Source: an uncultured Candidatus Saccharibacteria bacterium
GTDB lineage: Bacteria > Patescibacteriota > Minisyncoccia > Phycocordibacterales > UBA918
NCBI GenBank assembly: GCA_964618165.1
Contig: CAZTWW010000001.1
Coordinates: 499 to 64,498 of the forward strand
DNA: 64,000 nucleotides
Direction of reading: 5' to 3'
This document shows, piece after piece, positions 10,407-52,076 of the stretch; the first letter of the stretch is position 1, and each line of letters opens with the position of its first letter. A program made the translations under genes and the position numbers. Under the pieces are notes generated by a model, which was not told the origin of the DNA, made no database searches, and saw nothing but the letters and a program-made list of their open reading frames with translations.

Positions 10407-10415
10407 GAGAGTGCT

Positions 10416-11903: not shown

Positions 11904-11922
11904 AACTATTTCACTGACACAT

Positions 11923-11959
11923 TTCTTTGTTGTGCTTTAAAAATTTTGTTCACCGTACA
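11923..11959 (+). repeat. Conserved post-gene element TTCTTTGTTGT-N-GTTCACCGTACA (copy 1)
   Basis: An element of about 38 nt lies 20 nt after the stop of the Fn3 gene. A near-identical copy is at 18764-18802, after the dockerin gene. Confidence 0.6.
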
Positions 11960-12116
11960 ACATGTACGACTTACAAAATTTTTCTTGCATGCCTCGAACT
12001 GCATCCAGTGTAAAAGTTCTAGATGGTAGTTGTCAAAGGTGTAAACACAAGCATGGCGTAGTTTTGTATGTGGACTACACTCCAAAGTATTCACGAAGTA
12101 ATGCCATAATACAGAC

Positions 12117-13439: not shown

Positions 13440-13442
13440 TGT

Positions 13443-14651
13443 ATGCGTGTCCAGGATCTTGCTCAGCTTTCAACTCGAATGTTTAAGACGAACCCGCTTC
13501 GTACCTGGCTTACTATTCTTGGTATGGGAGTCGGGACGGGTGCGGTAGTTATTCTCGTCGGGCTTGGATTCGGGCTTCAGCAGATCATTCTTGAGCAGAT
13601 TGTGTTCGGTGAGACACTCCTCTCACTTGGTGTATCAGCCACCGGCGCGCAAAATCTCCGCCTTACTACCGAGACCGTCACGCAATTTGAAGAAATGCCA
13701 GAGGTTCTCGACGCTGCTCCGCTGGCACGCTTCCCGGCCCTCGTAACCTATAAGGGGCTGACTGGTAACGTGTTTATTCAAGGAGTAGAACCACCATACC
13801 TTCGGTATGCTGGTGTTTCCGCGACTGCTGGTGAGGTATTTACCGATGTTGATGCAGCTGATACCAGCAGTGTAATGCTGTCGCCGGCGGTATTAAAGCT
13901 CTTCGGGATTGAAGACGCAGAGAGTTTTGTGGGGGAGAAGGTGTCATTTCGTATACTCATTCCGGCAAATGATGGTACCGGCAACAACAACGAGGTGATT
14001 ATCGATAAAGAGTATACCGTTCGGGGTATCACGAAGGAGGAAGGTGTCCTTAATGCCATGATGATGCTCCCTGAACTCCGTAATTATGTTGGTATTGAGG
14101 AATTTGAGCGTATTCAGGTCCGTGTCGATACGAATGAAAATCTACCGATTGTCGAGACAAAGCTTATTGAGGAAGGGTACCGCGTGACTGCGCTCTCAAA
14201 GACTGTTGAACAGGCGTCAAAGATTTTCCAGGGTATTCAAGCAGTTTTGGCGACATTTGGTGGTATTGCCTTAGTGGTGTCGGCGATTGGTATGTTTAAC
14301 ACGATGACGGTGACACTCCTTGAGCGTACCAAAGAGATCGGTATTATGCGTACTATTGGTGCTTCTCCGAACGATGTAAAGTATCTCTTCGTGTCTGAGT
14401 CGGTAGTGGTAGGCTTTTTGGGTGGGGTGAGTGGGATAGTTATGGGGGTAGGACTTGGACTCACTATCAATCTTTTTTTGAATATTGTGGCGGGGCAGTT
14501 CGGTGGGCAAGCGGTAAAGCTCTTTTCATTCCCACTTGGGTTCTTGCTCTTCATTGCCCTCTTCTCAGCGGCGGTGGGGTACTTGACCGGTATCTTCCCA
14601 GCTCGTCGGGCCGCCAAGCTCAACCCGCTTGATGCGATTCGCTACGAATAA
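13443..14651 (+). CDS. ABC transporter permease, FtsX/MacB-like (402 aa)
   Basis: Starts 4 nt after the ATPase stop. It has an N-terminal TM helix, an extracytoplasmic domain of about 230 aa and three C-terminal TM helices, which is the FtsX/MacB topology. Confidence 0.8.
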   Translation: MRVQDLAQLSTRMFKTNPLRTWLTILGMGVGTGAVVILVGLGFGLQQIILEQIVFGETLLSLGVSATGAQNLRLTTETVTQFEEMPEVLDAAPLARFPALVTYKGLTGNVFIQGVEPPYLRYAGVSATAGEVFTDVDAADTSSVMLSPAVLKLFGIEDAESFVGEKVSFRILIPANDGTGNNNEVIIDKEYTVRGITKEEGVLNAMMMLPELRNYVGIEEFERIQVRVDTNENLPIVETKLIEEGYRVTALSKTVEQASKIFQGIQAVLATFGGIALVVSAIGMFNTMTVTLLERTKEIGIMRTIGASPNDVKYLFVSESVVVGFLGGVSGIVMGVGLGLTINLFLNIVAGQFGGQAVKLFSFPLGFLLFIALFSAAVGYLTGIFPARRAAKLNPLDAIRYE

Positions 14652-14710
14652 GTCTGTGCATAACTAGTGCATAACTGTCGTACCCTCCTATAAAATAAAG
14701 AGGTAAACGT

Positions 14711-16585
14711 ATGTTGTACAACAAAAATAATCTACCGCGGTATGTAGAGACCGCCGGTAAAATCACCATTTTATCAGCCTTAACTGGAGTATTGATTTTC
14801 ACCTTCATCTTTATTCTTAACATCGGTAAAACCGAGCTCCAGAAAGCCGAAGCGACATCAACCGCGACGACTACTCTCACTGTTCTTAACACGCCCCCAC
14901 AGTGGGAGATTGGTGAAGAAGGTCGTGAAGAGTTTGGTTCTTCCACGACCACACCAACTAACTCAGGTGATGTTGTCTCTTGGATTGGTCGAGCCACTGA
15001 CTCAAACGGCGCACCTTACTTCCTTATCATTTGTAGTAATAGTGCGACACCAACAGCTCAGCAGTCCACGACAACACTCGGAACCGCAGCGCCGATTTGT
15101 TCTGGCGGCGGTATCCGCTGGGCCGTTTCAACTTCTACCGTGAGTGGTGCACAGGCGCGTGCTGCTACAACCACGTTTGAAGGTGGTAACTTCCAGGAAT
15201 CTAATACCTGGTACGCCTGGGTGTGTGACGACGATCCGGTGAGTCCAAAGTGTAGTACAACATTCTCTCAGGGAACCAACGCCACGAACTCAAGTCCTTT
15301 TAACGTAAATCGTAGACCAATCTTCACCACTTTTGGTAATAATGGACCTGTTAATCCTGGCGGTACCATTACCTTCAATGCTACGGCAACCGATCCAGAC
15401 ATTGTAGACTTTGAAGATAATATTTACCTTGTTGTCTGTAGCCTTCCTTCATACAGTACAACCACGAACTCATGTGGTGCAGGAGACTTCATTGCCTCAA
15501 GTTCTCTCGGCGCCCTTCAAAATCCTACCGCTGCAACGAGTCTCGTAGCTATCATTCAGGACACGAGTTACAACGCCTATGGTTATGTCTATGACGAGCA
15601 TGGACACGAGGCACTGCTTGGAGCCCAGGGTACCAATACACCGTTTGTAGTTAATAACGTAGCACCAACAGTTTCGGGAGGTACTATTACACTTAATGGC
15701 GGTCTTGATATTACCCTCACAACACCTGGGGCGGAAACAACTGGCTTTACGCTCGAGTTCACTATCGCTGATGCAAATAGTTGTGATGCGGTCGGTGGTG
15801 GGCCTGCGGATGAGATTATTCGTCCGGTCGTCTCGATATTTAGAAGCTCACTAGGTACAACAACCTGTAACGGAGCTTTAGCTTACGATCCGAATCGCTG
15901 TTATGTAAGTGATGTTCCTACTTCTGTCTGGAATCTCGCATGTACAGCCTCTACCACCTCGTGTACCGGAGCGACTGATGATACGATTCAATATAATTGT
16001 ACGTTCCCACTTTGGTTCCTCGCTGATCCTACTGATGCAAGTTCACCATTTTCAGCTGAAGACTGGCGTGCTGGTGTAGCTGGAGTTGATGACGACCTTT
16101 CGACCGGTACAATGGCAACGTCGACGAGCGGACGAGAGCTCTTCAGTTTTGTAGCAATTGACTTGTTAACGCAAAACATTGCCTATACTGACCTTGAGCC
16201 TGGAACTGAGATGGCTAACTTGACTTCGTCTTCAACGCTTCGTGTGCTCGGTAACACCGGTATCAACCAGCTCCTCGGCGGAGATTCAATGTGTGACACC
16301 TACAGCATCAGTAATCCATGTCCTGTTTCGGGTACGTCAACTATTCCTCAAAGTGAGCAACGCTACGCAACTACAGCAGTAGCGTACGCAGCTGGTACAC
16401 CGCTTCAGCCTACTTCTACACCAGCACTGTTTGACATCCGTATCCCAAAACCAACTTCGACTTCAAGTCCGACACAGGATGAAACGTTCTGGGGTATCCG
16501 AGTTCCAGGTTCAATTACACGCGCGGGAGTATATACAGGTCGAAACACCTTTATGGGTGCGGTATCACCATCAGGAAGCTGGTAA
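14711..16585 (+). CDS. Secreted Thr/Ser-rich surface protein (624 aa) with the shared WxL-like C-terminal domain
   Basis: SD AAGAGG precedes the ATG. N-terminal signal anchor ILSALTGVLIFTFIFIL. The C-terminus '...IPQSEQRYATTAVAYAAG...ETFWGIRVPGS...GVYTGRNTFMGAVSP' is homologous to the C-termini of the 3,412-aa, 385-aa and 2,048-aa proteins. Confidence 0.8.
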   Translation: MLYNKNNLPRYVETAGKITILSALTGVLIFTFIFILNIGKTELQKAEATSTATTTLTVLNTPPQWEIGEEGREEFGSSTTTPTNSGDVVSWIGRATDSNGAPYFLIICSNSATPTAQQSTTTLGTAAPICSGGGIRWAVSTSTVSGAQARAATTTFEGGNFQESNTWYAWVCDDDPVSPKCSTTFSQGTNATNSSPFNVNRRPIFTTFGNNGPVNPGGTITFNATATDPDIVDFEDNIYLVVCSLPSYSTTTNSCGAGDFIASSSLGALQNPTAATSLVAIIQDTSYNAYGYVYDEHGHEALLGAQGTNTPFVVNNVAPTVSGGTITLNGGLDITLTTPGAETTGFTLEFTIADANSCDAVGGGPADEIIRPVVSIFRSSLGTTTCNGALAYDPNRCYVSDVPTSVWNLACTASTTSCTGATDDTIQYNCTFPLWFLADPTDASSPFSAEDWRAGVAGVDDDLSTGTMATSTSGRELFSFVAIDLLTQNIAYTDLEPGTEMANLTSSSTLRVLGNTGINQLLGGDSMCDTYSISNPCPVSGTSTIPQSEQRYATTAVAYAAGTPLQPTSTPALFDIRIPKPTSTSSPTQDETFWGIRVPGSITRAGVYTGRNTFMGAVSPSGSW

Positions 16586-17635: not shown

Positions 17636-18742
17636 ATGCTCAGTCGCTTATTCTTCATTGGTATCGTACTCTTGGTGCCACCATTCACTGTATTTGGTCA
17701 GGAGATCTACACTGCCACTACTACTATTAATCTCAGTATCTGTGGTAATAACGTGGTTGATACTGGTGAACAGTGTGATGTGCCGGGTGAGACCGGTCTA
17801 TACAGTACGACTATTGCTGGGCGACAGTGTAACGCACGGTGTGATTATGGTCCGTATTGTGGTGACGGGATTCTCCAGACTACATTTGGCGAAGAGTGTG
17901 ATGACGCGAATAATGACAGTGGTGACTTTTGTTCGGCTACCTGTACGATAGAGCCTGCTGGTTCTGGTGGAGGCGGTAGTTCTGGCGGTGGATCGGGTGG
18001 TGGTGGTTCAACCCGTGACTTAGGGGACACCTCAATTAGCGTGACCGGTCTTGGGTATCCAAATCAGCAGATCAATTTTCTCCTTGATACGAGAGCGGTA
18101 GGTTCCGTGCGGGCAAATAGCACTGGTCGTTTTGAATTTTCGACTAAAGCTTCTCCTGGTACCGCAACACTCGGTGTCTGGGCAAATGACTCAACTGGTG
18201 TTCGTTCAATTACGCTCAATAACACCTTTGATGTGACACAAGGTGCAGTGACTAATGTTAATGGACTTTTATTGCCGCCAACGTTGACACTCTCAAACAA
18301 TAAAGTTAGCCCTGGCAGTACGGTGACGATTAGTGGTCAAGCCGTTCCAAGTGCTCAGATTGAAATCCAGGTAGGAAACAGTAGTCTTCGCACGGAACGG
18401 ACGACGAGTGACGCAACGGGTCGCTATACGTTCCAGTTAAATACCTCCACGCTCCGTAATGCCGAGTATCCGATAAAAGCGCGATCAATCACTGGTACCG
18501 CGCCACTCCTCACGCAAAGTGGATATAGCTCGATTGCACAGCTATTTGTTGGTGTTGATGGTGCGCCGAGTTCACCGTCTGACTTGAGTCGAGACGGTAA
18601 GGTAAATCTCACCGACTTTTCGATTCTGATTTTCTGGTGGCAATCGGCCGGAGGTGATTCAAATCCGCCAGCTGATATCAATGGTAACGGTCGGGTGGGG
18701 TTGGAGGATTTTTCTATTCTCCTCTTCAACTGGACCGGCTAG
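17636..18742 (+). CDS. Secreted protein with Myxococcus-type Cys-rich repeats (DUF4215-like), Gly/Ser linker, Ig-like region and C-terminal dockerin-like domain (368 aa)
   Basis: Signal peptide. Cys-rich repeats CGNNVVDTGEQCD... and CGDGILQTTFGEECDDANNDSGDFCSATCTIE. Linker GSGGGGSSGGGSGGGGS. Two C-terminal dockerin repeats, DLSRDGKVNLTDFSILIF and DINGNGRVGLEDFSILLF. Confidence 0.75.
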   Translation: MLSRLFFIGIVLLVPPFTVFGQEIYTATTTINLSICGNNVVDTGEQCDVPGETGLYSTTIAGRQCNARCDYGPYCGDGILQTTFGEECDDANNDSGDFCSATCTIEPAGSGGGGSSGGGSGGGGSTRDLGDTSISVTGLGYPNQQINFLLDTRAVGSVRANSTGRFEFSTKASPGTATLGVWANDSTGVRSITLNNTFDVTQGAVTNVNGLLLPPTLTLSNNKVSPGSTVTISGQAVPSAQIEIQVGNSSLRTERTTSDATGRYTFQLNTSTLRNAEYPIKARSITGTAPLLTQSGYSSIAQLFVGVDGAPSSPSDLSRDGKVNLTDFSILIFWWQSAGGDSNPPADINGNGRVGLEDFSILLFNWTG

Positions 18743-20955: not shown

Positions 20956-21975
20956 ATGTTACGGATTGTTTTTGTCCTCGGACTCTTTCTTTGTGCGCTA
21001 CCCGCACAAGCTGCAACCCTATACATTGATCCACCACAACCAACCCTCAATCGTGGTGATGCCGTAACGCTCGCGGTGCGGGTTGATACCGATGAGGCGG
21101 CAGGTGAGTGTATTAATGCTATTGATGGTGTTATTACCTATAGTGATGGTATTAACCCGGTCGATATATCGCTTGGTGAATCAATTCTTCCAGTCTGGGT
21201 AGAACAACCAACCATCGATAAAGAGAATCGTCGCATCACGTTTGCCGGTGGTATTCCAAACGGCTACTGTGGGCGTGTTGAAGGCGATCCGCGGTTAACG
21301 AACGTTATTGCAGAACTCGTATTTCGGGCGCCTGGTCTTACTGTCGGTGGTGATGAGCCAAACAATACCGCTAGTGTTTCGTTTGCACCAGAGACGAACG
21401 TTTATCTAAATGACGGCTTTGGTAGCATTGCGCCATTATCGACACTTGGCGCAGAAATTACCCTGACACAAGCACTTGGTTCTGAAATTGTTGATGTGTG
21501 GCGTGAGGATATTAATGCAGACACGGTCCCGCCGGAAGAGTTTTCGATTACACTCGAACGTGATGAGTTTGCGTTTGAGCAGAAGTACTACATCGTATTT
21601 AACACCACTGATAAACAAACCGGGATTAGTCATTACGAGGTAATTGAAGAAGCCCCACAAGACGCTCGTCTCTTCTCATTTGGTGCCGCCACCGCTCCAT
21701 GGGAGCGAGCTCGTAGCCCATATGTGCTGAAAGATCAGACGCTTAAAAGCACCATACGAGTTCGGGCTATCGATAAAGCCGGTAATGAATACGTAGCCAC
21801 ACTTGCACCGCAGAATGCCAGTCGATTCTCGGTAACTGACTATATGTTGATTGGAGGAGCTACACTGCTCGCGGCCCTCATTATTGGTGTCACCGTATGG
21901 TTTGCTCGTCGCCGTCGCCGCAACATAGCGATGACTACCGGTGTAATGCCAGATGATAAGACAGATATCGTATGA
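20956..21975 (+). CDS. Membrane-anchored cohesin-like protein (340 aa) with signal peptide, cohesin-like beta-sandwich and C-terminal TM helix plus RRRRR stop-transfer
   Basis: I chose the internal ATG at 20956 (MLRIVFVLGLFLCALPAQA) because it lies just downstream of the terminator. Cohesin-like segment ATLYIDPPQPTLNRGDAVTLAVRV...INAIDGVITYSDGINPVDISLG...ITFAGG...VIAELVFRAPG. C-terminal TM helix LIGGATLLAALIIGVTVWFARRRRRN. Confidence 0.65.
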   Translation: MLRIVFVLGLFLCALPAQAATLYIDPPQPTLNRGDAVTLAVRVDTDEAAGECINAIDGVITYSDGINPVDISLGESILPVWVEQPTIDKENRRITFAGGIPNGYCGRVEGDPRLTNVIAELVFRAPGLTVGGDEPNNTASVSFAPETNVYLNDGFGSIAPLSTLGAEITLTQALGSEIVDVWREDINADTVPPEEFSITLERDEFAFEQKYYIVFNTTDKQTGISHYEVIEEAPQDARLFSFGAATAPWERARSPYVLKDQTLKSTIRVRAIDKAGNEYVATLAPQNASRFSVTDYMLIGGATLLAALIIGVTVWFARRRRRNIAMTTGVMPDDKTDIV

Positions 21976-23690
21976 AAAAGCTAATTGTTCTTACCTTTGT
22001 TCTTTTGAGTTTTTTGGTAGCTGATAGCGTGTTGGCTTCCACGCTCAGTCTCTCGCCAGCAACTGGCGTTTATACGACGGGTAGTACGTTTACCGTACGT
22101 GTTACTGTTAATACGAAAGGGGCGCCTATCAATGCGGCTGATGGTACGTTGTCGTTTAATCCGAAAGAGCTCCAGGTGGTGTCGGTATCCCGTGGGTCAT
22201 CAATTTTCAACCTCTGGACAACTGAACCAACCTTCTCAAATAGTGCCGGCACTATCTCATTTAGTGGCGGGTCACCGACTGGATACACTGGTAGCGGTGG
22301 TACGATTATGTCGGTTACGTTCCGTACTCTTGGAGCCGGCTCACCGCGGGTGAGTATGACCAATGGTTCAGTTCTCGCTGCTGATGGTCGAGGTACAAAT
22401 GTCCTCACAACGATGGGAAGTGGAGCGTATACGGTATCAGCTGTTGCCGACACCCCAATCCCTGAAGCAATTGTTGAATTTGTCCCGCCAGCGAATACTC
22501 CAGCTGCACCAAAAATCATCTCAGAGACCCACGGTGACGGTACGGGGTGGTCAAAAGAGCGTACCGCGCGACTCTCATGGACAGTTCCGGGTGATGTGAC
22601 AGCAGTCCGTACCCTGCTTGATGAAAATCCGACTTCAATCCCGACCAAAGTCTATGATTCACCAATTCGTGATATCACCATCGATGATTTGCCAGATGGT
22701 ATATCGTATTTCCATATACAGTTCAAAAACGATGAAGGGTGGGGCAGGGTAGCGCACTATCGACTGGCTGTTGACTCTTCAGCGCCACAAGGATTTGTCG
22801 TGATGTTGGCCCCTGATAGCAATCTCGCAAATCCGACCCAAACTCTTATCGCTACCACCACCGATACTCTTGGTGCCCCAATCAAAACCTTCAAGATACG
22901 AGTGAACAATGGTGAGGAGATTATCCAAGAGAATACTGCTGCTGGACAAATTAAGCTAGAAAATCTTTCGCCTGGACAGCAGGTGGTAGATGTGGAGGCA
23001 GTTGATGCAGCTGGCAACACGGTTGAGACCTCATTCACTTTTGAGATTGAAGCATTTGAGGCACCACGTTTTACTGATGTGCCGGCTATTGTTAATTCAG
23101 GAGTGATTCCAGTGATTACCGGAACCACAAGACCAAAGTCATCAGTTAAGGTTGTGCTGTCATTGGCTGGAGCGTCACCAATTGAGTACACGGTGACTGC
23201 TCAAGACGACGGAACCTTCCGTTTTGTGCCTGATGCAAAGCTAGTCGATGGTGTTTACAAAGTGTCTGCTCAAGCGACCGATGAGTTTGGCGCCATGAGT
23301 GAGTTGTCGAGTGAGATAAGCTTCGTTGTCCAGCCATCAGGGTTTGTACGTATTGGTGGTATCTTGATTAGCTTCCTCTCAATTATTGTGCCACTCATTG
23401 CACTCTTATTCCTCACTGCTTTTACTTGGTTCTTCTTCCTCGCTCGGTATCGTACCTGGCGAAGGAAGGTGGCGAGAGAAAGTGGTGAGGTGATGTCTGC
23501 ACTCCATGAGCAGTTTAGACAACTCTCTACGGTTATTGACGAACACGAAGAAAAGCTCCAGTCATCACGAAAGACTAAGAAACTCACTGCCGCCGAAGAA
23601 GCTCTCATCACTGATCTCCGTACTGTTCTGAGAGGTGCAGAGTCGGTAGTTGAAAAGGAGGTGAAAGATGTTACTGATTTAACCGATTAA
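21972..23690 (+). CDS. Membrane-spanning cohesin-like protein (572 aa) with N-terminal cohesin-like domain, Ig-like regions, TM helix and cytoplasmic coiled-coil tail
   Basis: ATGA start/stop overlap with the upstream gene. Signal peptide. Cohesin-like segment LSLSPATGVYTTGSTFTVRVTVNT...INAADGTLSFNPKELQVVSVS...SIFNLW...ISFSGG...IMSVTFRTLGAG. TM helix IGGILISFLSIIVPLIALLFLTAFTWFFFLA followed by RYRTWRRK and a charged helical tail. Confidence 0.65.
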   Translation: MKKLIVLTFVLLSFLVADSVLASTLSLSPATGVYTTGSTFTVRVTVNTKGAPINAADGTLSFNPKELQVVSVSRGSSIFNLWTTEPTFSNSAGTISFSGGSPTGYTGSGGTIMSVTFRTLGAGSPRVSMTNGSVLAADGRGTNVLTTMGSGAYTVSAVADTPIPEAIVEFVPPANTPAAPKIISETHGDGTGWSKERTARLSWTVPGDVTAVRTLLDENPTSIPTKVYDSPIRDITIDDLPDGISYFHIQFKNDEGWGRVAHYRLAVDSSAPQGFVVMLAPDSNLANPTQTLIATTTDTLGAPIKTFKIRVNNGEEIIQENTAAGQIKLENLSPGQQVVDVEAVDAAGNTVETSFTFEIEAFEAPRFTDVPAIVNSGVIPVITGTTRPKSSVKVVLSLAGASPIEYTVTAQDDGTFRFVPDAKLVDGVYKVSAQATDEFGAMSELSSEISFVVQPSGFVRIGGILISFLSIIVPLIALLFLTAFTWFFFLARYRTWRRKVARESGEVMSALHEQFRQLSTVIDEHEEKLQSSRKTKKLTAAEEALITDLRTVLRGAESVVEKEVKDVTDLTD

Positions 23691-23691: not shown

Positions 23692-24375
23692 ATGACAGAA
23701 AAACTGACTACAAAAAACATCGCAATTACACTTATCACTGTTATCGTAATTACAGTTGTTGCATCACGCTATATCAAAGCTGAGGTGAGTGAAGCGCTTC
23801 GTGATACTGAAGACACAGTGCGTGGTCAAATTGCGATTCAAACTGAACGGGTGCGAACAATTGCTGACGCCACAAAACTCAATCAAGGTGACGATGTAGC
23901 AACGTCTCTCGTGCTTGATTGTTCTGGTGATAATCGTCTCAAGTTTGATAGGTTGCTTGATAAGTTATCTGCTGATATCACTCGAACCGAGCTACTTGAA
24001 CTCGATAGTATTTTTCCAGATTGTGCAAACTACACTGCTGAGATAAAAAACATCATGGCAGCACGTCTCTTGCAAGAAGTAGAAATATTTGATCAGCATA
24101 AACAGCTCCTTGATAAACTCCGTGTTGAAGATGAATCTGTTGCGGCTAAAATTGACTTATGGAAGCGTGTTGCCGAAGGTGAGCAGAACGCGGCAAAACA
24201 ATACAGACAGTTGGTCAGCTTACAACGAGATATTATTCGTACGCTACTGGCAGGTAAGTCCAAAGATTCAGCTGAAATTAAGGCAATACTCACACAAGTC
24301 ACTAATGTAAAGAATGAAATGACAGTTACCCGCTCACAAATTGAAAATGTCCGTGCCGAGCTTGCGGCTTTATGA
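23692..24375 (+). CDS. Membrane-anchored coiled-coil protein (227 aa), unknown function
   Basis: Starts 2 nt after the previous stop. N-terminal TM helix IAITLITVIVITVVAS. The remainder is heptad-rich helical sequence. Confidence 0.65.
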   Translation: MTEKLTTKNIAITLITVIVITVVASRYIKAEVSEALRDTEDTVRGQIAIQTERVRTIADATKLNQGDDVATSLVLDCSGDNRLKFDRLLDKLSADITRTELLELDSIFPDCANYTAEIKNIMAARLLQEVEIFDQHKQLLDKLRVEDESVAAKIDLWKRVAEGEQNAAKQYRQLVSLQRDIIRTLLAGKSKDSAEIKAILTQVTNVKNEMTVTRSQIENVRAELAAL

Positions 24376-25130
24376 TGCAACTTTTACGTACTATTCTTGA
24401 GAAACTAGCACCAAGCTTTTTTCTCCGTAATACGAAGACAATTCATTATGCATTCTCGCTCCTGCTTCTCATGGCATTTGCGGTGGGAGTGGCGAGCGTA
24501 GTTGGTTCAGAGCGAACGAGCATTCTCATTGAATCATCAGTAGAGACGGTAGTTGAGAATGATTTATTCTCAATTCGTGTCTATGCGGTGGCAACCACAC
24601 CGGTTAATGCGGTGTCTTTATCGATAGCGACACCATCAGAGTTTGTTGAGGTGATGGGTGTTGATAGAGGGGAGTCAGTTATCACCCTCTGGACGAATGA
24701 GCCAAAAGTTGAGGGTGGGGTAGTAACCCTCGAAGGCGGAACGTACCGCCGAGGTTTTGTAGGGAAACACCTGATCGCAACAATCAATCTAAAAGCAAAG
24801 AAGAATGGGCAGGCAACAATTGTAGCAACTGATGCTAATCTACTTGCGGGCGATGGGCGTGGGACGGTGGTAGCAACAGATATATCGAAAGCTAAACGTA
24901 GTCTGTCGATAGGAACAAAGTCTACCGACGGGGAACAGGTAACGTTTGATGCAGCGGTTGTTATTGTGACTGACCTTGATGGAGATGGAGCGGTCTCACT
25001 CAGTGATATATCTACTTTTATGGGAGAGTGGATACGTCAGAACAATCGCTATGATTTTAATAATGATGGAGCAATGACTTTTAAAGACTTCTCGATTCTT
25101 CTGGCTAACTACTTTAAGTCCGCCTCTTAG
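24372..25130 (+). CDS. Adaptor-like protein carrying both a cohesin-like and a dockerin-like domain (252 aa)
   Basis: ATGA overlap with the upstream gene. N-terminal TM/signal FSLLLLMAFAVGVASVVG. Cohesin-like segment FSIRVYAVATTPVNAVSLSIATPSEFVEVMGVDRGESVITLW...VTLEGG...LIATINLKAKKNGQATIV. C-terminal dockerin repeats TDLDGDGAVSLSDISTFM and DFNNDGAMTFKDFSILLANY. Confidence 0.7.
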   Translation: MMQLLRTILEKLAPSFFLRNTKTIHYAFSLLLLMAFAVGVASVVGSERTSILIESSVETVVENDLFSIRVYAVATTPVNAVSLSIATPSEFVEVMGVDRGESVITLWTNEPKVEGGVVTLEGGTYRRGFVGKHLIATINLKAKKNGQATIVATDANLLAGDGRGTVVATDISKAKRSLSIGTKSTDGEQVTFDAAVVIVTDLDGDGAVSLSDISTFMGEWIRQNNRYDFNNDGAMTFKDFSILLANYFKSAS

Positions 25131-26757: not shown

Positions 26758-26826
26758 TTTCTCTACAATAAAAGCGTGGTCTCGTAACCCTGAACGTGCG
26801 AGAATAAAGGCATGTGGAGGTTTCCC

Positions 26827-29800
26827 ATGTCTTTTTTCTGTGACTGCAGGCGACCAGTGGCTTTGCTGTTGCTGGTGGTGACGTTTGGTCTCAATCTCAC
26901 TATTCTTGAGTATGTGACTTGGCCACAGTTCGCTGAGGCAGCGGTTGTAACGGTTGATGCCACCGTAAGTCTCGATGCTAACGCCTTTTTCTTTGGTGGC
27001 TCACAAACAGTTTTCGTTTCTGATCAGGTGGGGTATAAGTTTTATCCTGATAGTACCGGGCAGTGTGTGTATAGTAAAACCACTAATGGTGCAGTGAGTT
27101 GGAATACTCCTGTTATTGTGGATGCGCAGACTGACTGCGCCAGTATTTCTGTATGGTATGACCAGTGGACACCAAATGATTACGGTACTTATATCCATAT
27201 CGCAACTATGGATACAGCTGCTGCAACCGATCGTCTTTACTACAATCGCCTCGATACCACCAATGATTCATTACTCCTTGGTACTACTCCAGTGGTGACG
27301 AGTAGTAACTCAGGCCAAGGCGGTACGTTTGTGTCTGGTACCAATAGCGTAACTGTTACAAAGAGTACCAGTAATGAAGTGTTCATGGCTGTCTCAGATG
27401 CAACTGATTCGTTTGTGGTTCGCTGTTCTACAAACTGTAACTTGACCACTGGCTGGACCGAAGCGGGGACGGCCTTTATGGACCTTGATAATGATTGGAA
27501 TATACTCATGCCCGTTTCATCTGGCGGTGTACTCCTCATTAACCGCGACATTAGCCTTGATGATATCAGATCACGCTTTTGGAATGGTTCGTCGTGGTCA
27601 GTGAGTTGGACTAATGTCGATACGAATGCAGTAGAGAATGCGACCTATGACGTGAGTATGGCAGCGGTAATTGATCATACCAATGGCGACATTTATCTAG
27701 CCTATGGAGCCGATCACGATAACTACACGACCCTCGACCACGACATCCGTACGGCTAAGTTTTCTTCTGGATCTTGGACTGGTACGACAGCTGTGTTTAC
27801 TAATCGTGCGCTCCGTGGACTCCATACCGTTGCGATTGCACTTGATACCAATACGAGTACTGTCTATGTTGCATACATCCTCCGCACGACACCAGGCACC
27901 GCGACGACCGGTAACGTGTACTGGGCTACATCTACCTCAGCAATGTCTGCCTGGAGTGCAGAGCGTGGACCAGTTAATATCACCGCTGGAGATCTTCGTG
28001 GACTTGACCTCAACCTCATGAGTGATGAGCGTATCTATGTGACGTGGCAGGACCCGGCTCCAGACGATATCTTTGGTGAAACTTTAGCAGATATTGCACC
28101 AATAACGAAGTTGACTGCAAGTGGTACCCCAAGTACGACCATTGTTGCGAGTACCAGCAATGCGTATGTGGGTGGTAAGTTTGTTATACGTGAGAGTGTC
28201 ACAAGTCGTAATTTGACCGATATACTCTTTACTGAACGTGGGACTATAGCGGCTGATACAGCGCTCGCAAATGTGCGCTTGCGCTATGACCTTGATACGA
28301 CCGCGCCATATGATTGTGCGAGTGAGTCATATGCTGGTACCGAACCACAATACGGCCTTACCGATACCGATGGCTTCTCAAGCACTAACGGTACTGTCTC
28401 GTTTGCTGGGCTCGTGAATATTTCTCCAACCCAAGCCTTTTGTGGGTATGTTGTACTCGACGTGCTTGATAGCGCCCTTGATGGAGATACGCTAGCGATA
28501 TCTGTTGAAACGCCGAATACTCACGTACTGGTGACTGGGGGTGTACTCGTGTCTCCAGCTGGTCCAGTTCGGTTTGCGACTTCAACCTTAATTCAAAATG
28601 ATGAGTTGACCCAAACCAGTTACCATTGGCGTAATGACAATGGTACTGAAGCTGCGGCTACCTCAGCTACTGGTGGTATAGCGAATACTCCGATTGCTGC
28701 GATTCTTCCTAATGTACCCCGTCGACTTCGTCTTCAGGTCTCAAACGAGGGTAGTCTCACGAGTCCAGCGACCGCCTTTCGTCTTGAGTATGCAGAGGCT
28801 ACTCCAACCTGTGATGGAGCAACTGGATGGACAGACGTTGGGGCAACGAATGATGCCTGGAATATGTCACTCTCAGCTAACCTCACTGAAGGAGCCAATA
28901 CAACCAATATCGCAGTGGCAACTGGAGGTGTGGCTGATGAGAATACTACTTTCCTGACCCCGAACGGTGGTGTTCGAGAGTCCTCGTCTCAAACTGGTTC
29001 ATTGACGTTATTAAACACTAACTTTGTTGAACTTGAGTATTCTATCGTGGCGTCAACCTCAGCCTCTGAGGGGTCGACGTACTGTTTTCGAGTTACCAAT
29101 GCCGGAACACCTCTGCCGGTATATACCCAGTATCCGGCTGCTACCATTGCGGCGGACGTGTCGGTCTCTGCCAGTGGCACCCAAGCGACATCACTTGTAA
29201 TTCCTTCAACGGTACAACATGTTGGAGGACAGTTTGTACTTCGTGAAAATACCAGTAATCGTAATATTACGAGTATTATGATTACAGAGAATGGTACCGT
29301 TGACGGTGCTGTTGGTTTAGATAACATCCAGCTCCGCTATGATCTTGATACCACCGCACCGCAAAACTGCGCGAGCGAAACCTATGCTGGTACTGAGGCG
29401 CAATTTGGAGTAACTGATACAGATGGATTTTCGGGTGCTAATGGTACGTCAACCTTTACGGGTACATTAGCGGTTTCAACTACTTCCACCGTCTGTCTCT
29501 ATGTGGTATTTGATGTAACCGGCTTGGCAGTAAATGGTGAGACGGTACAAATCGAAATTAATTCACCGGCGAACGATGTACAGGTGAGTACCGGTTCGGT
29601 GTCACCATCTACACCAATAGCACTCGCTGGTACGACAACGCTTGCTGGTGCGGTGATGACCCAAACTGGCTACCATTGGCGTAATAATGACGGTGGTGAA
29701 GCTACTTCGACTTCTGCCACAGTAGGGACAGAAAACACTATATTAACAGAGCATCTTGCGAACAGCCCAATCCGTCTTCGTTTAGCACTCTCAAATGAAG

Positions 29801-32800
29801 GTGCTGCTACATCTGTTGCATCCACCTACCGTCTTGAGTTTGGTCCACGGGTAACAACGTGTGATGCAGTGAGTGTCTGGACACCGGTCGGTGATGCGGC
29901 TGATGACTGGAATATGTTTGATTCGCCAGCGCTCATTAATGGTGCAAACACGACAAATATCGCTGTCGCTACTGGTGGAGTTACTGATCCAAATCCCACA
30001 TTCATTGTTGCTAATTCCGGTGTTCGTGACACTACTTCCACATCGTCGAGTCTCACTATCAGTACGACCGAATTTGCTGAGCTTGATTTTAGTATTACCT
30101 CGACGAATATCACCGCCTTTAATACAACCTATTGTTTCCGACTCACGGCTGAGGGTCGTCCGCTTCAGACCTATACACAGTATGCGCAACTCACGACCGC
30201 ACCGAAGCGTGACTACAAAGTGCAACGGGGTGTGACGGTGGTCGCGGGTCTGACGCAGACACTTACGGCTGGTGTTGATTACACTGCACCGAGTGCGTCA
30301 TCAACCGCATTTGTGCGCATTACTGATACGCATCATACCCCGCCAGGACGCACCACTGCTGGTGGTGGTGCACAAAACGCTGACGACTACACGGCCTACA
30401 TCAGTAATCCAACGAATATCACCACAAGCTTCACTATCTCGCGCCCACCAGCAGCGACGGGTAACACTCGCGTGACCTGGGAAATAGTCGAGTTTATTGG
30501 TGATGCTGGTACGGATAACGAAATGATTGTTCGCGGTGGTGGTGCAGTGAACTTTGCCTCCGCATCGACGAGTGCAACTGGTACGACAGTCTCTGGTATA
30601 GCCGATGATGCTGATGTGGTCGTCTATATCACTGGAATAGAGAACCGCGATATCGCGCGCAACCTCTTTTATGCACAGCAAGTGACCGCTGAGTGGGATG
30701 CGACAAATGATAGACCAATCTTTCGTCGTGGAGCCGGTGGAGCGATTATTAATGTTAGCTATGCGGTGGTTGAGTACACGGGTATAAACTGGCGCGTGCA
30801 ACGGGTCGAGCATACGTATGCCTCATCGACTGTAGTAGAGACAAAGCCAATCGATCCAGTAAATAGCTTAGCTCGTACCTTTATTCATACCCAAAAGCGC
30901 ATGGGGGCACTTGGTAACGTCAACAACTTTGGTCACGAGGTCTGGTTATCGAGTATAGGACAAGTGTCGTTCAATCTTGAACCAGCAGCTACTACTCCAA
31001 CTGGCCATGTATCGGTAGCGTGGGTAATTGAGAACCAACAAACGAGTGCTGGTGCCATGAAAGTGCAGCGTACCAATGGTACGACAAACGCGGGCACTGA
31101 GCCGGTAACACTAAGTATTTCACTCTTTACTCCGATTGAGTCAACTAATAATGCATCTATCTTCGGTATGTCGCGAGTAGTTGGTGCGAACACTAACTTC
31201 CCGCTTGTAAATGCTGGTCTTCGTATTACCGGCACCTCTACGTTTGAACTGTGGCGTAGTGAGGCTTCCGCTGAAATGACCTACCGAACAGAGGTGGTCG
31301 AGTGGCCAGTGAGTGGGCTTGCAGTGCGCCAAAACTACTATCGTTTTTATGTTGATAATAATGCACTAACGCCAGCTGATCCATGGCCACCTGGTCCTGT
31401 TGATGTTGGTGAAAATAGTCCGATTACGGCACTTGATGAACCACTTGGCGAGAGTGAGGTTGTGCGCCTCCGAATGTCACTACGAGTAGCTAACGCTATT
31501 TTGCCTGCTGGTCTTTATGATTTTAAACTACAATACGGCCTCCGAGTGACGTCTTGTAGTAGTGTCGGGACCTGGACTGACCTTGGTGCAGCCGGTGGTT
31601 CTGGTGCATGGCGCGGCTACGCTGCTACTGGCACTACCGATGGCACAGCACTCAGTATTAATCCACCTGATAGTGGCGACTTGCTCATTTCTGTCTCAGA
31701 TAGAGCTGGTAGTCTTGAGGAAGAGAATCAAAGTCCAGCTAACCCATATTTGGTTAACCCAGGAGAGGACCTCGAGTATGACTGGTATGTGCAACATAAC
31801 GGAGCGCTTTCTCGTAATACATACTGTTTCCGCATGGTTCGTAGTGATGGAACTCCACTCGATGGCTACCTCAACTATCCGCAGCTTCGTACTGCTGGGT
31901 ACGCACCTCAAACTAAAAATTGGCGCTTTTACGAAGATGCAGAACTTGAGACACCACTTTCACCACTATCTAGTGAAAATATCTCACCAATTGAAATTCA
32001 AAATCAAAACGTGATTGCACTTCGTGTGACGGTCGGTGAACGCAAGAATGTAACTGGGCAGAATGTGAAGTTCCGATTGCAATACGATGAAGATCCGAAC
32101 TTCACCAATCCAAAAGAGTTAGCAGCTACCTCGACCTGTACTGCTACCTCCACCTGGTGTTATGCCGATGGTGGTGGGGTAGATAATGCGACGATTACCA
32201 CTAAGGTGCTCTCAGACGCCGATTCATGCACAGCATCAGTTGGTAATGGCTGTGGTACGCACAATGAGAGTCCAACGTTTGTTCCAGGCTTTACCCATCA
32301 GCCAAGTGCCAATAAAGAGTTTGCCTTTTATATCCGTCATGCGGCTGCTCGTGCTGGTGCGGTCTACTACTTTAGACTGTATGAAGTGTTTGAAGACGTC
32401 CCTGTCCCGGTCGCGAGTGGGGAAGTTACACCAAGTCTCGTGGCAGAGACAGCTAAGCTCACACTTACGATTAATGGGCTTCCAAGTGGTACCACGACCG
32501 CAGGTATTACGACTACTGCTTCCTCAACGCCATCAACGGTGGCATTTGGCTCACTGCCGCTCAATACCGATGTGTATGCAGCGCATCGGATTGCGGTGAC
32601 GACGAATGCCACGGAGGGCTATCGGGTATTAGCATTTGCTCGGCAACAGCTCCTTAATGTGTATGGTACAGCGATTCCATCGGTGACCGGTACTAATGCG
32701 GTACCAACTGCGTGGTCGGTCGGTTGTAGTTTGAGCGCGTCTGGTTGTGTTGGGTACCACGCAACTGATGCTGTCCTTTCTGGCGGCTCAACCCGCTTTG

Positions 32801-32970
32801 CGGCACTTGATACGTATGCCGGACTTCATACGACACCGGCTGAAGTCATGTACAACCCTATACCAGCGAATGATGTTCATGATATTGTATATCGAGTTCG
32901 CGTTGGATCGACCCAGCCGGCAGGTAATTACGAAACCGAAATCGTCTATATTGCTATCCCTACCTACTAG
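26827..32970 (+). CDS. Giant surface protein (about 2,048 aa) with N-terminal BNR/Asp-box-like beta-propeller, repeated modules of about 170 aa shared with the 3,412-aa protein, and the WxL-like C-terminal domain
   Basis: GGAGG sits 6 nt before the ATG at 26827 (the ORF track lists 26812). Signal anchor VALLLLVVTFGLNL. BNR-like motifs S.T.NGAVSW and FSSGSWTG. The module motifs 'YHWRN[DN][DN]G...RLRL..SNEG...YRLE[YF]...C....W..VG...W......T.....TNIAVATGG........ELE[YF]SI......YCFR' occur at least twice in full, plus two more divergent copies. C-terminus ...NYETEIVYIAIPTY. Confidence 0.85.
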   Translation: MSFFCDCRRPVALLLLVVTFGLNLTILEYVTWPQFAEAAVVTVDATVSLDANAFFFGGSQTVFVSDQVGYKFYPDSTGQCVYSKTTNGAVSWNTPVIVDAQTDCASISVWYDQWTPNDYGTYIHIATMDTAAATDRLYYNRLDTTNDSLLLGTTPVVTSSNSGQGGTFVSGTNSVTVTKSTSNEVFMAVSDATDSFVVRCSTNCNLTTGWTEAGTAFMDLDNDWNILMPVSSGGVLLINRDISLDDIRSRFWNGSSWSVSWTNVDTNAVENATYDVSMAAVIDHTNGDIYLAYGADHDNYTTLDHDIRTAKFSSGSWTGTTAVFTNRALRGLHTVAIALDTNTSTVYVAYILRTTPGTATTGNVYWATSTSAMSAWSAERGPVNITAGDLRGLDLNLMSDERIYVTWQDPAPDDIFGETLADIAPITKLTASGTPSTTIVASTSNAYVGGKFVIRESVTSRNLTDILFTERGTIAADTALANVRLRYDLDTTAPYDCASESYAGTEPQYGLTDTDGFSSTNGTVSFAGLVNISPTQAFCGYVVLDVLDSALDGDTLAISVETPNTHVLVTGGVLVSPAGPVRFATSTLIQNDELTQTSYHWRNDNGTEAAATSATGGIANTPIAAILPNVPRRLRLQVSNEGSLTSPATAFRLEYAEATPTCDGATGWTDVGATNDAWNMSLSANLTEGANTTNIAVATGGVADENTTFLTPNGGVRESSSQTGSLTLLNTNFVELEYSIVASTSASEGSTYCFRVTNAGTPLPVYTQYPAATIAADVSVSASGTQATSLVIPSTVQHVGGQFVLRENTSNRNITSIMITENGTVDGAVGLDNIQLRYDLDTTAPQNCASETYAGTEAQFGVTDTDGFSGANGTSTFTGTLAVSTTSTVCLYVVFDVTGLAVNGETVQIEINSPANDVQVSTGSVSPSTPIALAGTTTLAGAVMTQTGYHWRNNDGGEATSTSATVGTENTILTEHLANSPIRLRLALSNEGAATSVASTYRLEFGPRVTTCDAVSVWTPVGDAADDWNMFDSPALINGANTTNIAVATGGVTDPNPTFIVANSGVRDTTSTSSSLTISTTEFAELDFSITSTNITAFNTTYCFRLTAEGRPLQTYTQYAQLTTAPKRDYKVQRGVTVVAGLTQTLTAGVDYTAPSASSTAFVRITDTHHTPPGRTTAGGGAQNADDYTAYISNPTNITTSFTISRPPAATGNTRVTWEIVEFIGDAGTDNEMIVRGGGAVNFASASTSATGTTVSGIADDADVVVYITGIENRDIARNLFYAQQVTAEWDATNDRPIFRRGAGGAIINVSYAVVEYTGINWRVQRVEHTYASSTVVETKPIDPVNSLARTFIHTQKRMGALGNVNNFGHEVWLSSIGQVSFNLEPAATTPTGHVSVAWVIENQQTSAGAMKVQRTNGTTNAGTEPVTLSISLFTPIESTNNASIFGMSRVVGANTNFPLVNAGLRITGTSTFELWRSEASAEMTYRTEVVEWPVSGLAVRQNYYRFYVDNNALTPADPWPPGPVDVGENSPITALDEPLGESEVVRLRMSLRVANAILPAGLYDFKLQYGLRVTSCSSVGTWTDLGAAGGSGAWRGYAATGTTDGTALSINPPDSGDLLISVSDRAGSLEEENQSPANPYLVNPGEDLEYDWYVQHNGALSRNTYCFRMVRSDGTPLDGYLNYPQLRTAGYAPQTKNWRFYEDAELETPLSPLSSENISPIEIQNQNVIALRVTVGERKNVTGQNVKFRLQYDEDPNFTNPKELAATSTCTATSTWCYADGGGVDNATITTKVLSDADSCTASVGNGCGTHNESPTFVPGFTHQPSANKEFAFYIRHAAARAGAVYYFRLYEVFEDVPVPVASGEVTPSLVAETAKLTLTINGLPSGTTTAGITTTASSTPSTVAFGSLPLNTDVYAAHRIAVTTNATEGYRVLAFARQQLLNVYGTAIPSVTGTNAVPTAWSVGCSLSASGCVGYHATDAVLSGGSTRFAALDTYAGLHTTPAEVMYNPIPANDVHDIVYRVRVGSTQPAGNYETEIVYIAIPTY

Positions 32971-32971
32971 T

Positions 32972-33958
32972 ATGAAAGCACTACTCATCTGTCTCGCACT
33001 ATTTATTACCGTACCGCAGTTTGTATTGGCAAACAGTTATAGTGTGACACCGCTTGTGATAGAGCGCGATGTGTCAGCGCGAGACATGCTCGAGGAGACC
33101 ATTAAGGTGACCAATACTGGCACGGTACCGGTGAAGATATTTCCGTCGGTCAATGCCATTACGCTTGGTGAAGATGGTTCGATTGAGGAGTTTATTGCGC
33201 CGGTTATGACCGATCAGACGACAAATGTTGCAAGTTGGCTCGCTATCTCTCGCGCTCGGATAGAGCTTGCTCCCGGTGAAACGAAGCGTATCCCACTTTC
33301 AATTACCATCAATCCCCAGGCAGTTCCGGGTGAGTACTATGCGCTTATTGGGTTTGGGAGTGGCGATAAGCGTGATGAAGCAGAGGCTGCAGTCATGGCA
33401 GGTCGCGCACCTGGTGTGACGGTCCGTCTCGCGATAGCTGATAAGAAAAACGAATACCTTCGACTGCATTCATTTGTGGTCGACCGCTTTGTCACCAATC
33501 CAGCTGAGAGCCTCGTGCGCTACGAGCTTGAAAATATCGGGGACACCCCAATATCACCAAAAGGTGAGATTATTATTTACGATGTGCGTGGTAAGGAGGT
33601 TGGAGCAGTATCCGTAAATGATGCTGGTGAAGTACTCGAGCCGAGTACTCGTCGAGAGTTTTCAGCAACACTACCCGCTACCGGTATTTATGGTCGTCAC
33701 AAAGCTTTTCTTAATCTTGAGTATGGTAGTACCCAGCGAGCAAATTTGTACGACACTACCTTTTTTACCGTAGTACCGATTCTTTATATTATGATTGCCT
33801 TTGGGGTGCTCCTCTTAACCACCCTTATACTCACGCTTTTGTATATCTTTAAGCAGCGTCGACACCATCATGTCGATGATGAGTCAGTCGCAATGTATAT
33901 CCGCGATGGGGTTCATAGTGATCTAAAAGACCATGACATCAATCTTAAACACAATTAA
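32972..33958 (+). CDS. DUF916-like cell-surface protein (328 aa), paralog 2, with C-terminal TM anchor and His/Arg-rich tail
   Basis: The ATG at 32972 lies 2 nt after the stop of the giant gene. The ORF track's alternative start at 32747 would overlap 226 bp, so I rejected it. Signal peptide ALLICLALFITVPQFVLA. The motif 'APGETKRIPLSITINPQAVPGEYYALIGF' is paralogous to 'PPQQTATIPLQVNVPDNAAPGGHYAAVLIG' in the next gene. C-terminal TM helix FGVLLLTTLILTLLYIF followed by KQRRHHH. Confidence 0.7.
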   Translation: MKALLICLALFITVPQFVLANSYSVTPLVIERDVSARDMLEETIKVTNTGTVPVKIFPSVNAITLGEDGSIEEFIAPVMTDQTTNVASWLAISRARIELAPGETKRIPLSITINPQAVPGEYYALIGFGSGDKRDEAEAAVMAGRAPGVTVRLAIADKKNEYLRLHSFVVDRFVTNPAESLVRYELENIGDTPISPKGEIIIYDVRGKEVGAVSVNDAGEVLEPSTRREFSATLPATGIYGRHKAFLNLEYGSTQRANLYDTTFFTVVPILYIMIAFGVLLLTTLILTLLYIFKQRRHHHVDDESVAMYIRDGVHSDLKDHDINLKHN

Positions 33959-35564
33959 ATACTCGTTAGTCGCTATTTGTATAGGGATACCGTTTTACAC
34001 GCTTGCGCAACAACCAGACACGCAAACACTCACGGTGTCACCAACACTGTTTGAAATGCGGGCCGAGCCAGGTCAGGCCTGGACGAGTGAGCTCCGCGTC
34101 ATTAATGCCAATAATTATGAAATTACGGTATACCCAGAGCCGGTAAACTTCGCACCACTTGGTGAAGATGGTCGAGGTGACCTCATCCCTATCATGAGTG
34201 AAGAAACTGGCGGTCAAACGCTTGCTGAGTGGATCACGGTACCTGTCGAACCGGTTGTAATCCCACCGCAACAAACGGCCACCATACCGCTTCAGGTGAA
34301 TGTGCCGGATAACGCTGCTCCTGGTGGACACTACGCCGCCGTCCTTATCGGTACAAAGCCTCCAACAGAGGGTCGGCAAGCATCACAGGTTCAGACTGCA
34401 CAGTATGTAACCTCACTATTCTTTGTTCGTGTTGCGGGAGATGTGCGTGAGGTGGCTGATATTCGTGAGTTTACAACTGAGCCCTCGGTTGTCCAACGTC
34501 CTGAGGTGACACTCTCGCTTCGGTTTGAAAACACGGGTAATGTCCACGTACAACCCCAGGGAGATATTAAGATTTTAAATATGTGGGGACAGGAGCGAGG
34601 TCTTATTCCAATCAATCATCAAACCCACTTCGGTAATGTCCTACCTGATAGTGTTCGAAAATTTACATTCACCTGGAAAGGGGATACAGCACTTTATGAT
34701 ATTGGTCGTTACAAAGCGGTGGCAACACTGGGGTATGGCGTTGAAGGCAAGCAATTTGTGACGAGTACGACATACTTTTGGATTATTCCGTACACGACAA
34801 TTTTCCTCACGATTATTCTTGTGGTGGCAGTTATTAAAATCGGTGCGTGGCTCATTCGTCGATACATCGAGCGCATGCTTGCCCTCTCAGGAGTTTCTCC
34901 AGACACACGTCCATATGTACCACAACATATGCGTACTGGTACACTAGATTCGAAGACTGTTGTCATGCGTGGCAATTCTTATCAACGAGCAACGGCACCG
35001 GTGCGTGCGGGTTTCCTTGATATCCTGAAATCATGGCAAGCGGGAACTACCGTTAAGATGCGCCTCAAGTCACTCTTCCGTACGCTTCGTCATTACGCGA
35101 AGCTAATAGGAGCCTTCATCGTTGTGCTGCTAGCCTTTGTGGCAATTACCTATGTCATCGCGAGTATTATGAAAGAAGACACGCACTTTGAAGTTGCTAT
35201 CAATAGTCCTGGAGCCGACGTGGTTATGTCATCTGAAGAAATCTCATACAACGAGTTAAAGCTAGACGAAACATTCCCAGAAGAAAAAATAGCCACACCA
35301 CCAATTACCGTTGTAAACGCGAGCGGCAAGGTGGGTGCTGGTGCTCGTACGCAGATCGCTCTTGAGAAGGCTGGCTATAGCGTCTACGATCTTGATACTG
35401 ATGAGAGTCGCCAAGATGAGCGCACGATAATCGTGTACTCTGCTAAGGATCAAGAACTGGCACTGACGCTTAGCCGTCTCCTGACTGGAGCACTCCTCTC
35501 GGCACGTGAAGGTGAGGAGAATAGTATTATCATCTATGCTGGGAGCGACAGCCTCTCACGCTAG
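33933..35564 (+). CDS. DUF916-like protein (543 aa), paralog 3, with two TM helices and a C-terminal LytR_C-like domain
   Basis: Overlaps the previous gene by 26 nt. Signal peptide LVAICIGIPFYTLA. DUF916-like ectodomain. TM1 IIPYTTIFLTIILVVAVIKIGAWLI. TM2 LIGAFIVVLLAFVAITYVIASI. C-terminal segment VVNASGKVGAGARTQIALEKAGYSVYDL...TIIVYSAKDQELALTLSRLL, which resembles the LytR_C domain of LCP proteins. Confidence 0.7.
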   Translation: MTSILNTIKYSLVAICIGIPFYTLAQQPDTQTLTVSPTLFEMRAEPGQAWTSELRVINANNYEITVYPEPVNFAPLGEDGRGDLIPIMSEETGGQTLAEWITVPVEPVVIPPQQTATIPLQVNVPDNAAPGGHYAAVLIGTKPPTEGRQASQVQTAQYVTSLFFVRVAGDVREVADIREFTTEPSVVQRPEVTLSLRFENTGNVHVQPQGDIKILNMWGQERGLIPINHQTHFGNVLPDSVRKFTFTWKGDTALYDIGRYKAVATLGYGVEGKQFVTSTTYFWIIPYTTIFLTIILVVAVIKIGAWLIRRYIERMLALSGVSPDTRPYVPQHMRTGTLDSKTVVMRGNSYQRATAPVRAGFLDILKSWQAGTTVKMRLKSLFRTLRHYAKLIGAFIVVLLAFVAITYVIASIMKEDTHFEVAINSPGADVVMSSEEISYNELKLDETFPEEKIATPPITVVNASGKVGAGARTQIALEKAGYSVYDLDTDESRQDERTIIVYSAKDQELALTLSRLLTGALLSAREGEENSIIIYAGSDSLSR

Positions 35565-52020: not shown

Positions 52021-52025
52021 CAAAA

Positions 52026-52058: not shown

Positions 52059-52076
52059 CTGCCGGTGACATCAGGG

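Follow-up and report, generated by a model that had tools for sequence, protein, structure and literature searches.

The 64,000-nucleotide stretch of DNA analysed here, from an uncultured Candidatus Saccharibacteria bacterium (the window), encodes two giant proteins that share a repeated module: pA (2,052 amino acids; gene at 26812-32970, + strand, according to the list of open reading frames (ORFs) and its translation) and pB (3,412 amino acids as listed; 168-10406, + strand). We consider it probable, taking fold and roles together as one reading, that this module represents a widespread, previously unnamed family of extracellular domains of about 175-190 residues, and that it is best understood as an immunoglobulin (Ig)-like, disulfide-linked stalk unit that can also be used as a split display domain. 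An initial annotation made from the sequence alone had located four copies in pA (there given 2,048 amino acids) and one in pB; a six-frame profile scan of the window, which gave the envelopes of the copies, recovered all five in these places and no further ones.

Copies A1 (28603-29157) and A2 (29653-30207) of pA are unsplit and belong to the first of three subtypes (subtype I), A3 (31321-31902) belongs to subtype II, and A4 (31903-32454), which directly adjoins the conserved C-terminal domain of pA, belongs to subtype III. The pB copy, B1, has a profile envelope of 9102-9617, and all five lie on the + strand. To avoid circularity, the copies were scored with a profile of 68 non-redundant domain sequences of other organisms (window-free profile), yielding 180.3 bits for A1 (independent E-value (i-E) 3e-57), 165.9 for A2, 160.5 for A3, 87.5 for A4 and 113.9 for B1. 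In pairwise BLASTP comparisons A1 is 52% identical to A2 (E 3e-58) and 33% identical to B1 (E 5e-19), A2 is 30% identical to A3 (E 3e-14) and A3 is 23% identical to A4 (E 2e-4); the pair A1-A4 is not significant on its own. The more distant copies are also recognised across subtypes, A3 scoring 98 bits with a profile of subtype I only and A4 scoring 49-63 bits with profiles lacking both the window sequences and subtype III. Shuffled sequences (200 per copy) reach 8.0 bits at most, and the remaining parts of pA and pB no more than 1.5 bits, so the similarity among the five copies is real and not an effect of composition.

The five copies are therefore homologous. A resemblance caused by composition had to be weighed, since both proteins are rich in Thr, Ser, Ala and Gly and strongly biased, but we give it practically no credence: it is already refuted by the window-free profile scores and the shuffle controls, the other regions of the same proteins score next to nothing, each copy is recognised by independent profiles and a confident fold is predicted. 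The window-free profile, a hidden Markov model (HMM), sets the copies far apart from chance (87-180 bits for the four in pA and 114 for B1, against at most 8 bits for shuffled sequences).

Relatives of the module are numerous. When 1.84 billion cluster representatives (50%-identity clusters) were searched exhaustively with HMMER, 2,876 proteins matched at E<=1e-3, of which 1,466 remained at E<=1e-10 and 330 at E<=1e-30; a single protein had up to 21 matched stretches, and the host proteins were as long as 7,591 amino acids. Among 455 domains, the columns R41 (449 domains), R39 (397), L59 (409), E138 (418), Y154 (426), F156 (423), R157 (439) and Y169 (402; all in profile numbering) are near-invariant, and Trp columns 74 and 86 as well as D-G at columns 96-97 are also kept family-wide. 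The three subtypes are set apart mainly by the long excursion. Subtype I comprises 257 of these domains (including A1, A2 and B1), subtype II 167 (including A3, with a YRFY start, E-Y-D-W and YCFR) and subtype III 31 (including A4, with WCYADGGG...GCGTHNE, YYFR and four Cys). Most of the motifs that the initial annotation had listed as conserved are indeed family-wide columns (R-L-R, [FY]-x-L-[QE]-[YF], a Cys, a Trp, E-x-[ED], Y-C-F-R and L..Y..YP), but TNIAVATGG is confined to the A1/A2 subtype and the WRNDDG start is missing in A3 (YRFY) and A4 (WRFY).

That the module could not be assigned to a named family, as the initial annotation had also claimed, was borne out. Neither pA nor pB has a Pfam match corresponding to the module, and NCBIfam yielded no match at all in the two proteins; when 73 members were scanned singly against Pfam, no consistent family emerged and no member reached any gathering score. 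Profile searches of the PDB with the five-copy, the 73-sequence and the A4 plus C-terminal-domain alignments were empty, the A1-type alignment detected no relative among viral contigs, and a full-text literature search for the motif WRNDDG returned no paper. The window copies thus qualify as members of a new family in that the window-free profile recognises all five, they share its signature and one fold is predicted with confidence.

The fold was modelled with AlphaFold2 from the 73-sequence alignment with A1 as first sequence. The model has a predicted local distance difference test score (pLDDT) of 97.7 and a predicted template modelling score (pTM) of 0.92, and all five models exceed a pLDDT of 97; an earlier model from a 15-sequence alignment (pLDDT 61.6) was not used. 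The predicted structure is all-beta, with main strands at residues 2-11, 40-48, 57-65, 86-88, 130-134, 140-150 and 160-166, and has two long excursions, the first after strand 1 (residues 12-39) and the second, of about 60 residues, between strands 3 and 5 (residues ~66-129). As modelled, the module is a seven-stranded Ig-like beta-sandwich, which is a familiar superfold. Its structural neighbours are exclusively Ig-like sandwiches of the E-set type, namely CARDB, DUF11/CLIPPER, alpha-2-macroglobulin MG, CnaB-type pilin and the Fn3-like domains of GH3 enzymes. The suggestion of a lectin-like or jelly-roll repeat in the initial annotation is not supported, as neither topology nor family match links the module to ConA-like, LamG or carbohydrate-binding module (CBM) domains.

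Given such a common fold, the module might be a divergent member of a named Ig-like family (CARDB, Fn3, DUF11/CLIPPER or Big_x) that sequence profiles missed, in which case nothing about it would be new. Sub-threshold CARDB (PF07705) matches in three of the 73 members, all of them relatives and the best with E 0.011, speak for this explanation, as does the top Foldseek match in the PDB, 9ifr (E 7e-3). We nevertheless regard it as very unlikely. The CARDB gathering score is reached by none of the five window copies, as indeed no member reaches the gathering score of any Pfam family; fn3 (PF00041) has no match in pA or pB at E<=1 and is not among the families of the 73 modules at E<=0.1, while the same Pfam library does detect fn3 in the neighbouring gene at 10416-11903. 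The family moreover has its own near-invariant signature (R41, E138, Y154-x-F156-R157) and lacks the conserved Lys/Asn column that an isopeptide domain would need. Foldseek found nothing at E<=1e-3 in the PDB, with TM scores of at most 0.40, or among viral models at the same threshold; the family has no close solved relative. A well-characterised domain such as Fn3 or CARDB, which the initial annotation had named as the outcome that would make its observation mundane, is thus encountered at the level of the predicted CARDB-type fold and not at the level of the family.

The sandwich is probably stapled by a disulfide in most members. Of the 455 domains, 273 have Cys at both columns 68 and 155, 174 at neither and eight at a single one; because the two columns co-vary almost perfectly, we infer a bond between the Y-C-F-R strand and the loop that follows strand 3. 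In A1 the two Cys are module residues 70 and 161. The number of Cys is even in every window copy: the downstream part of B1 has four, and so does A4, which has Cys at the first column and not at the second (YYFR). Subtype III, the Cys-rich group that includes A4, probably accounts for the eight single-Cys exceptions. A disulfide of this kind would be in keeping with an extracellular domain. An isopeptide cross-link, suggested by the pilin and CLIPPER neighbours, was rejected: no column with conserved Lys or Asn was found in the 455 domains (the top Lys column reaches 0.43 and the top Asn column 0.47), so the isopeptide chemistry of these neighbours does not apply, and the module sequences have no DUF11 Pfam match.

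The pB copy differs from those of pA in being split. The family profile covers it from position 15 only. The initial annotation had let it begin near nt 9120, but its first strand lies further upstream. The segment SQTAFRWRSDDGLEG at amino acid 2663 of pB (nt 8154), about 325 residues before the B1 remainder, is an exact match to profile positions 3-14, so that the split module consists of a first strand (FRWRSDDG; 8130-8186), a nested insert of about 315 residues (8187-9128) and a remainder that starts with GATW (9129-9617; profile positions 15-176, 113.9 bits, i-E 4e-36), all on the + strand. When the first strand was joined in silico to GATWLAAQ..., the score rose from 113.9 to 134.7 bits (+20.8) and the coverage extended to positions 3-176. 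The insert contains DUF2341 (Pfam E 2e-16), the only Pfam family found in pB, and a second domain, rich in beta-structure and perhaps ConA-like: it resembles SO2946-like_C with E 1.8e-4, below the cut-off of that family, and the Joint Genome Institute (JGI) name of the orthologue P0159 is "DUF2341/Concanavalin A-like". P0159 and a further protein, P0137, have the same arrangement and are 66% and 54% identical to pB over first strand and insert.

The module split recurs at one loop in relatives, as judged from their sequences. Among the 150 proteins that score highest, a complete module begins at 118 strict WRNDDG-type motifs, and each of the 17 orphan YRWRNDDG-type motifs (17/17) has a late-starting module (profile position 8-23) 174-679 residues downstream, which in 13 of the 17 cases begins no earlier than position 12 and extends as far as the C-terminal end. 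Strand 1 is missing from 41 of 485 C-complete modules. Further split cases are found in P0019 (amino acids 735-1270) and P0109 (amino acids 890-1430). The break point is constant, after DDG-x-E and before (G)ATW, corresponding to the loop after strand 1 of the model. At least six types of insert occur: a BNR_2 propeller, DUF2341 with Laminin_G_3, the pB type (with P0159 and P0137), two unrelated inserts of about 180 residues, two repeat-rich and possibly propeller-like ones and one that is Gly-rich.

Two further features of pB were noted. Within nt 3-8130 (+ strand), the protein contains three super-repeats of about 790 amino acids (amino acids 713-1500, 1510-2290 and 2292-2675) with 35-41% identity, and an earlier, unsplit DUF2341 region, for which Pfam gives two DUF2341 stretches and the sequence suggests approximately amino acids 385-460. 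The frame of pB stays open to nt 3, indicating that the protein is cut by the window edge.

These observations suggest how the module might work. The unsplit copies, to which all four copies of pA belong, would be the building units of a stalk, or extenders, in a cell-surface protein. In a split copy, the chain would exit the sandwich just past the first strand (...WR[NS]DDG-x-E) into the inserted domain and, after the insert, re-enter it (G-A-T-W...) and finish the sandwich, strand 1 thus completing the fold in three dimensions. The split copy of pB would be a companion domain that holds its insert, probably a ligand-binding domain, out to the side of the fibre in the manner of RTX adhesins, and the inserts in general would bind ligands.

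The main competing explanation is that the module itself is the ligand-binding unit, lectin- or CBM-like, its apical excursions forming the site and its three subtypes recognising different ligands. The excursions are the main difference among subtypes I-III and yet are well conserved within a subtype, as exemplified by the A1-type invariants T100, T101, N102, I103, G108, G109, D112, T116 and F117, and the Trp residues of columns 74 and 86 and the D-G pair of columns 96-97 are kept throughout the family. We consider this explanation unlikely, because the module matches no lectin or CBM family in sequence or structure, its best structural neighbours are stalk-type Ig domains, tandem arrays of up to 21 copies per protein are typical of stalks, and separate domains of known binding types (BNR, LamG) are found inserted in it time and again. 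A bolder version of the display role, which we put forward only tentatively, is that of a dedicated scaffold: a conserved, disulfide-stapled Ig-like host with a fixed socket after strand 1, into which varied binding or enzymatic heads, among them a BNR propeller, DUF2341-LamG and several unknown folds, would have repeatedly been plugged by ultrasmall episymbionts and some other bacteria. If this were true, the exchange of inserts at the socket would help to set which hosts or surfaces the cells attach to.

Several points weigh against the stalk and split-display reading that we favour. pA has only four copies, which are interleaved with other domains, and no long homogeneous stalk. The loops are strongly kept within subtypes (e.g. 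TNIAVATGGV.D.N.TF), so that the module itself could bind. The co-variation of the Cys columns (Fisher p 2e-117) is uncorrected for kinship, and the disulfide is deduced from these columns and not from the model coordinates. Completion of the pB sandwich by strand 1 is argued from sequence alone, and the family as a whole is known from sequence and predicted structure.

An extracellular setting is also suggested by pA and its neighbourhood. The protein has a signal-like hydrophobic N-terminal segment followed by a head of about 400 amino acids, an alternation of two modules (X-Y-X-Y, Y denoting the module studied here), a middle region of about 370 amino acids, two further Y modules and a C-terminal domain of 170 amino acids; the whole protein has zero Pfam-A or NCBIfam matches. 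A genome scan seeded with the alignment of A4 and the C-terminal domain yielded 80 related loci, a set biased towards pA orthologues, in all of which (80/80) these two most conserved parts of pA (together 31903-32967, + strand) were found; 36 of the loci contain four module copies and six contain five. Full-length orthologues with the same architecture are present in dozens of genomes; one of these proteins, P0021, is 50% identical to pA over about 2,030 residues. Homologues of the two genes downstream of pA (32747-33958 and 33933-35564, + strand) accompany it in 73 of the 80 loci; one of them encodes a WxL-interacting peptidoglycan-binding domain (WxLIP_PGBD) together with LytR_C. With respect to the traits of a fibrillar adhesin (stalk repeats in tandem, a distal adhesive domain and an anchor in the cell wall), pA has four module copies, against up to 21 in relatives, its head and C-terminal domain belong to no recognisable family (Pfam at E<=10), and this partner gene is syntenic in the 73 loci. 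The listed ORF at 32747-33958 shares its first 224 nt with the end of pA, so that its true start probably lies further downstream. Upstream of pA, cohesin (with Big_13) and dockerin-type domains are encoded at 17636-18742, 21972-23690 and 24372-25130 (+ strand), and homologues of these genes were found in 14-34 of the 80 loci. The signal-like N-terminus, the orthologues, the WxLIP_PGBD and LytR_C partner and the cohesin- and dockerin-type neighbours together point to the cell envelope or surface, and it is there that the module would exert its stalk and display function.

Module X is a second duplication within pA, of about 165 amino acids (28102-28602 and 29158-29652, + strand), which alternates with the studied module and has the motif ...VGG.F.[IL]RE...RN[IL]T...L.YDLDT..P.[DN]CASE.Y.GTE.... 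Its two copies are 48% identical (E 4e-54); it has no Pfam match and is unrelated to the studied module (1.5 bits). The pA head (amino acids 40-430; 26929-28101, + strand) contains Asp-box-like motifs (e.g. YSKTTNGAVSW) reminiscent of BNR propellers. As a propeller assignment this is a lead and not a finding, because Pfam at E<=10 is empty and BLASTP to the BNR_2-positive insert of a relative gives only E 0.007. The same applies to a WxL-like appearance of the C-terminal domain, an impression by eye for which Pfam at E<=10 and the PDB search with the A4 plus C-terminal-domain alignment returned no match.

The 80 loci are mostly titled as metagenome-assembled genomes (MAGs) of Patescibacteria (Paceibacteria, Kaiserbacteria, Nomurabacteria and "Saccharibacteria"), several have only "bacterium" or "uncultured bacterium" as their title, and one is titled "Acidimicrobiales". 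Patescibacteria are not the only hosts of the family. The module was also seen outside the contexts typical of the candidate phyla radiation (CPR), in P0015 (positions 8001-15611 of locus L081), P0017 and P0052. One protein of a Chloroflexota-labelled MAG has 13 tandem copies and is encoded beside pabABC-like genes and a gene with a prepilin motif, a 10-copy protein has an N-terminal prepilin N_methyl motif, and a 7-copy protein is fused to multihaem cytochrome (MtrC-like) domains. The prepilin motifs and cytochrome domains of these relatives also speak for a surface setting.

The initial annotation had taken the module as evidence that the two giants are mosaic relatives. The module is indeed common to both, but nothing else detectable is shared and the module is promiscuous, occurring in thousands of otherwise unrelated proteins, so the term has little meaning here: beyond having the module in common, pA and pB are not related in a deeper way. 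Elsewhere the window has the genes of an ordinary chromosome (TGT, UvrA/B/C, Ddl). The G+C content of the window is approximately 0.48-0.50 but falls to 0.44 at 52000-56600, where a Schlafen-group-3-like helicase gene (54691-56550) and several ORFs without family are located; this region is a possible mobile or defence island.

A large part of bacterial diversity belongs to the Patescibacteria (CPR), and those that have been cultivated live attached to other microbes. Giant proteins on their surface are suspected of mediating attachment but are almost wholly unannotated. The domain definition given here provides a handle on about 2,900 protein clusters, sets boundaries for expression constructs and would be a straightforward addition to domain databases. 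In addition, the split copies supply a sequence rule for candidate ligand-binding domains (an orphan WRNDDG, an insert and GATW), the equivalent of which has already been productive for RTX adhesins. The module is thus useful for annotating dark protein space and for finding the binding domains of CPR surface proteins, without being conceptually surprising.

In RTX adhesins such as AhLap, MpIBP and FrhA, which contain BIg extender and split domains, the domains that bind ligands emerge from Ig-like split domains, branching off behind the first strand, and split domains now serve to locate the binding domains (PMC12077191 and, cited in it, Graham et al, 2024, Proteins 92:933). Like these adhesins, the family has Ig-like sandwiches that recur within giant surface proteins; the chain of its split copies would, to judge from sequence, exit after the first strand and then return, and its inserts are of lectin or CBM type. 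It differs in having no detectable sequence relation, a size of about 180 residues with long excursions and a putative disulfide, and hosts that are mainly Patescibacteria, which have a Gram-positive-type envelope. No HemolysinCabind or other RTX Pfam match occurs in pA or pB, type I secretion signals and Ca2+-binding sites not having been looked for. The module would work like a split domain, but pA and pB are not RTX adhesins.

Among the structural neighbours, CARDB (PF07705; PDB 3idu) is likewise a seven-stranded Ig-like sandwich of prokaryotic cell-surface proteins, but it is only about 100 residues long and has neither the excursions nor the R-L-R / E-x-E / Y-C-F-R signature. DUF11/CLIPPER is a covalently stabilised sandwich that bacterial and archaeal fibrillar adhesins use in tandem as a stalk unit, with a CnaA-like fold and a Lys-Asn isopeptide cross-link (PDB 9ifr; bioRxiv 10.1101/2025.04.25.650565), whereas the module has a co-varying Cys pair and no conserved Lys/Asn, and the Foldseek TM score is only 0.28-0.36. 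Host adhesion has been inferred for giant DUF2341/FhaB proteins of Patescibacteria (PMC11809585), a class to which pB belongs with its length of more than 3,400 amino acids, its DUF2341 and its long repetitive N-terminal part; the portions of that study drawn on here count FhaB and DUF2341 domains only and describe neither the module nor a DUF2341 nested in it. Compared with these systems, the module forms a sequence family that is new but of a well-known kind, that of the Ig-like repeats in giant surface proteins, and is distinguished by its long excursions, its optional, putative disulfide and its fixed insertion socket.

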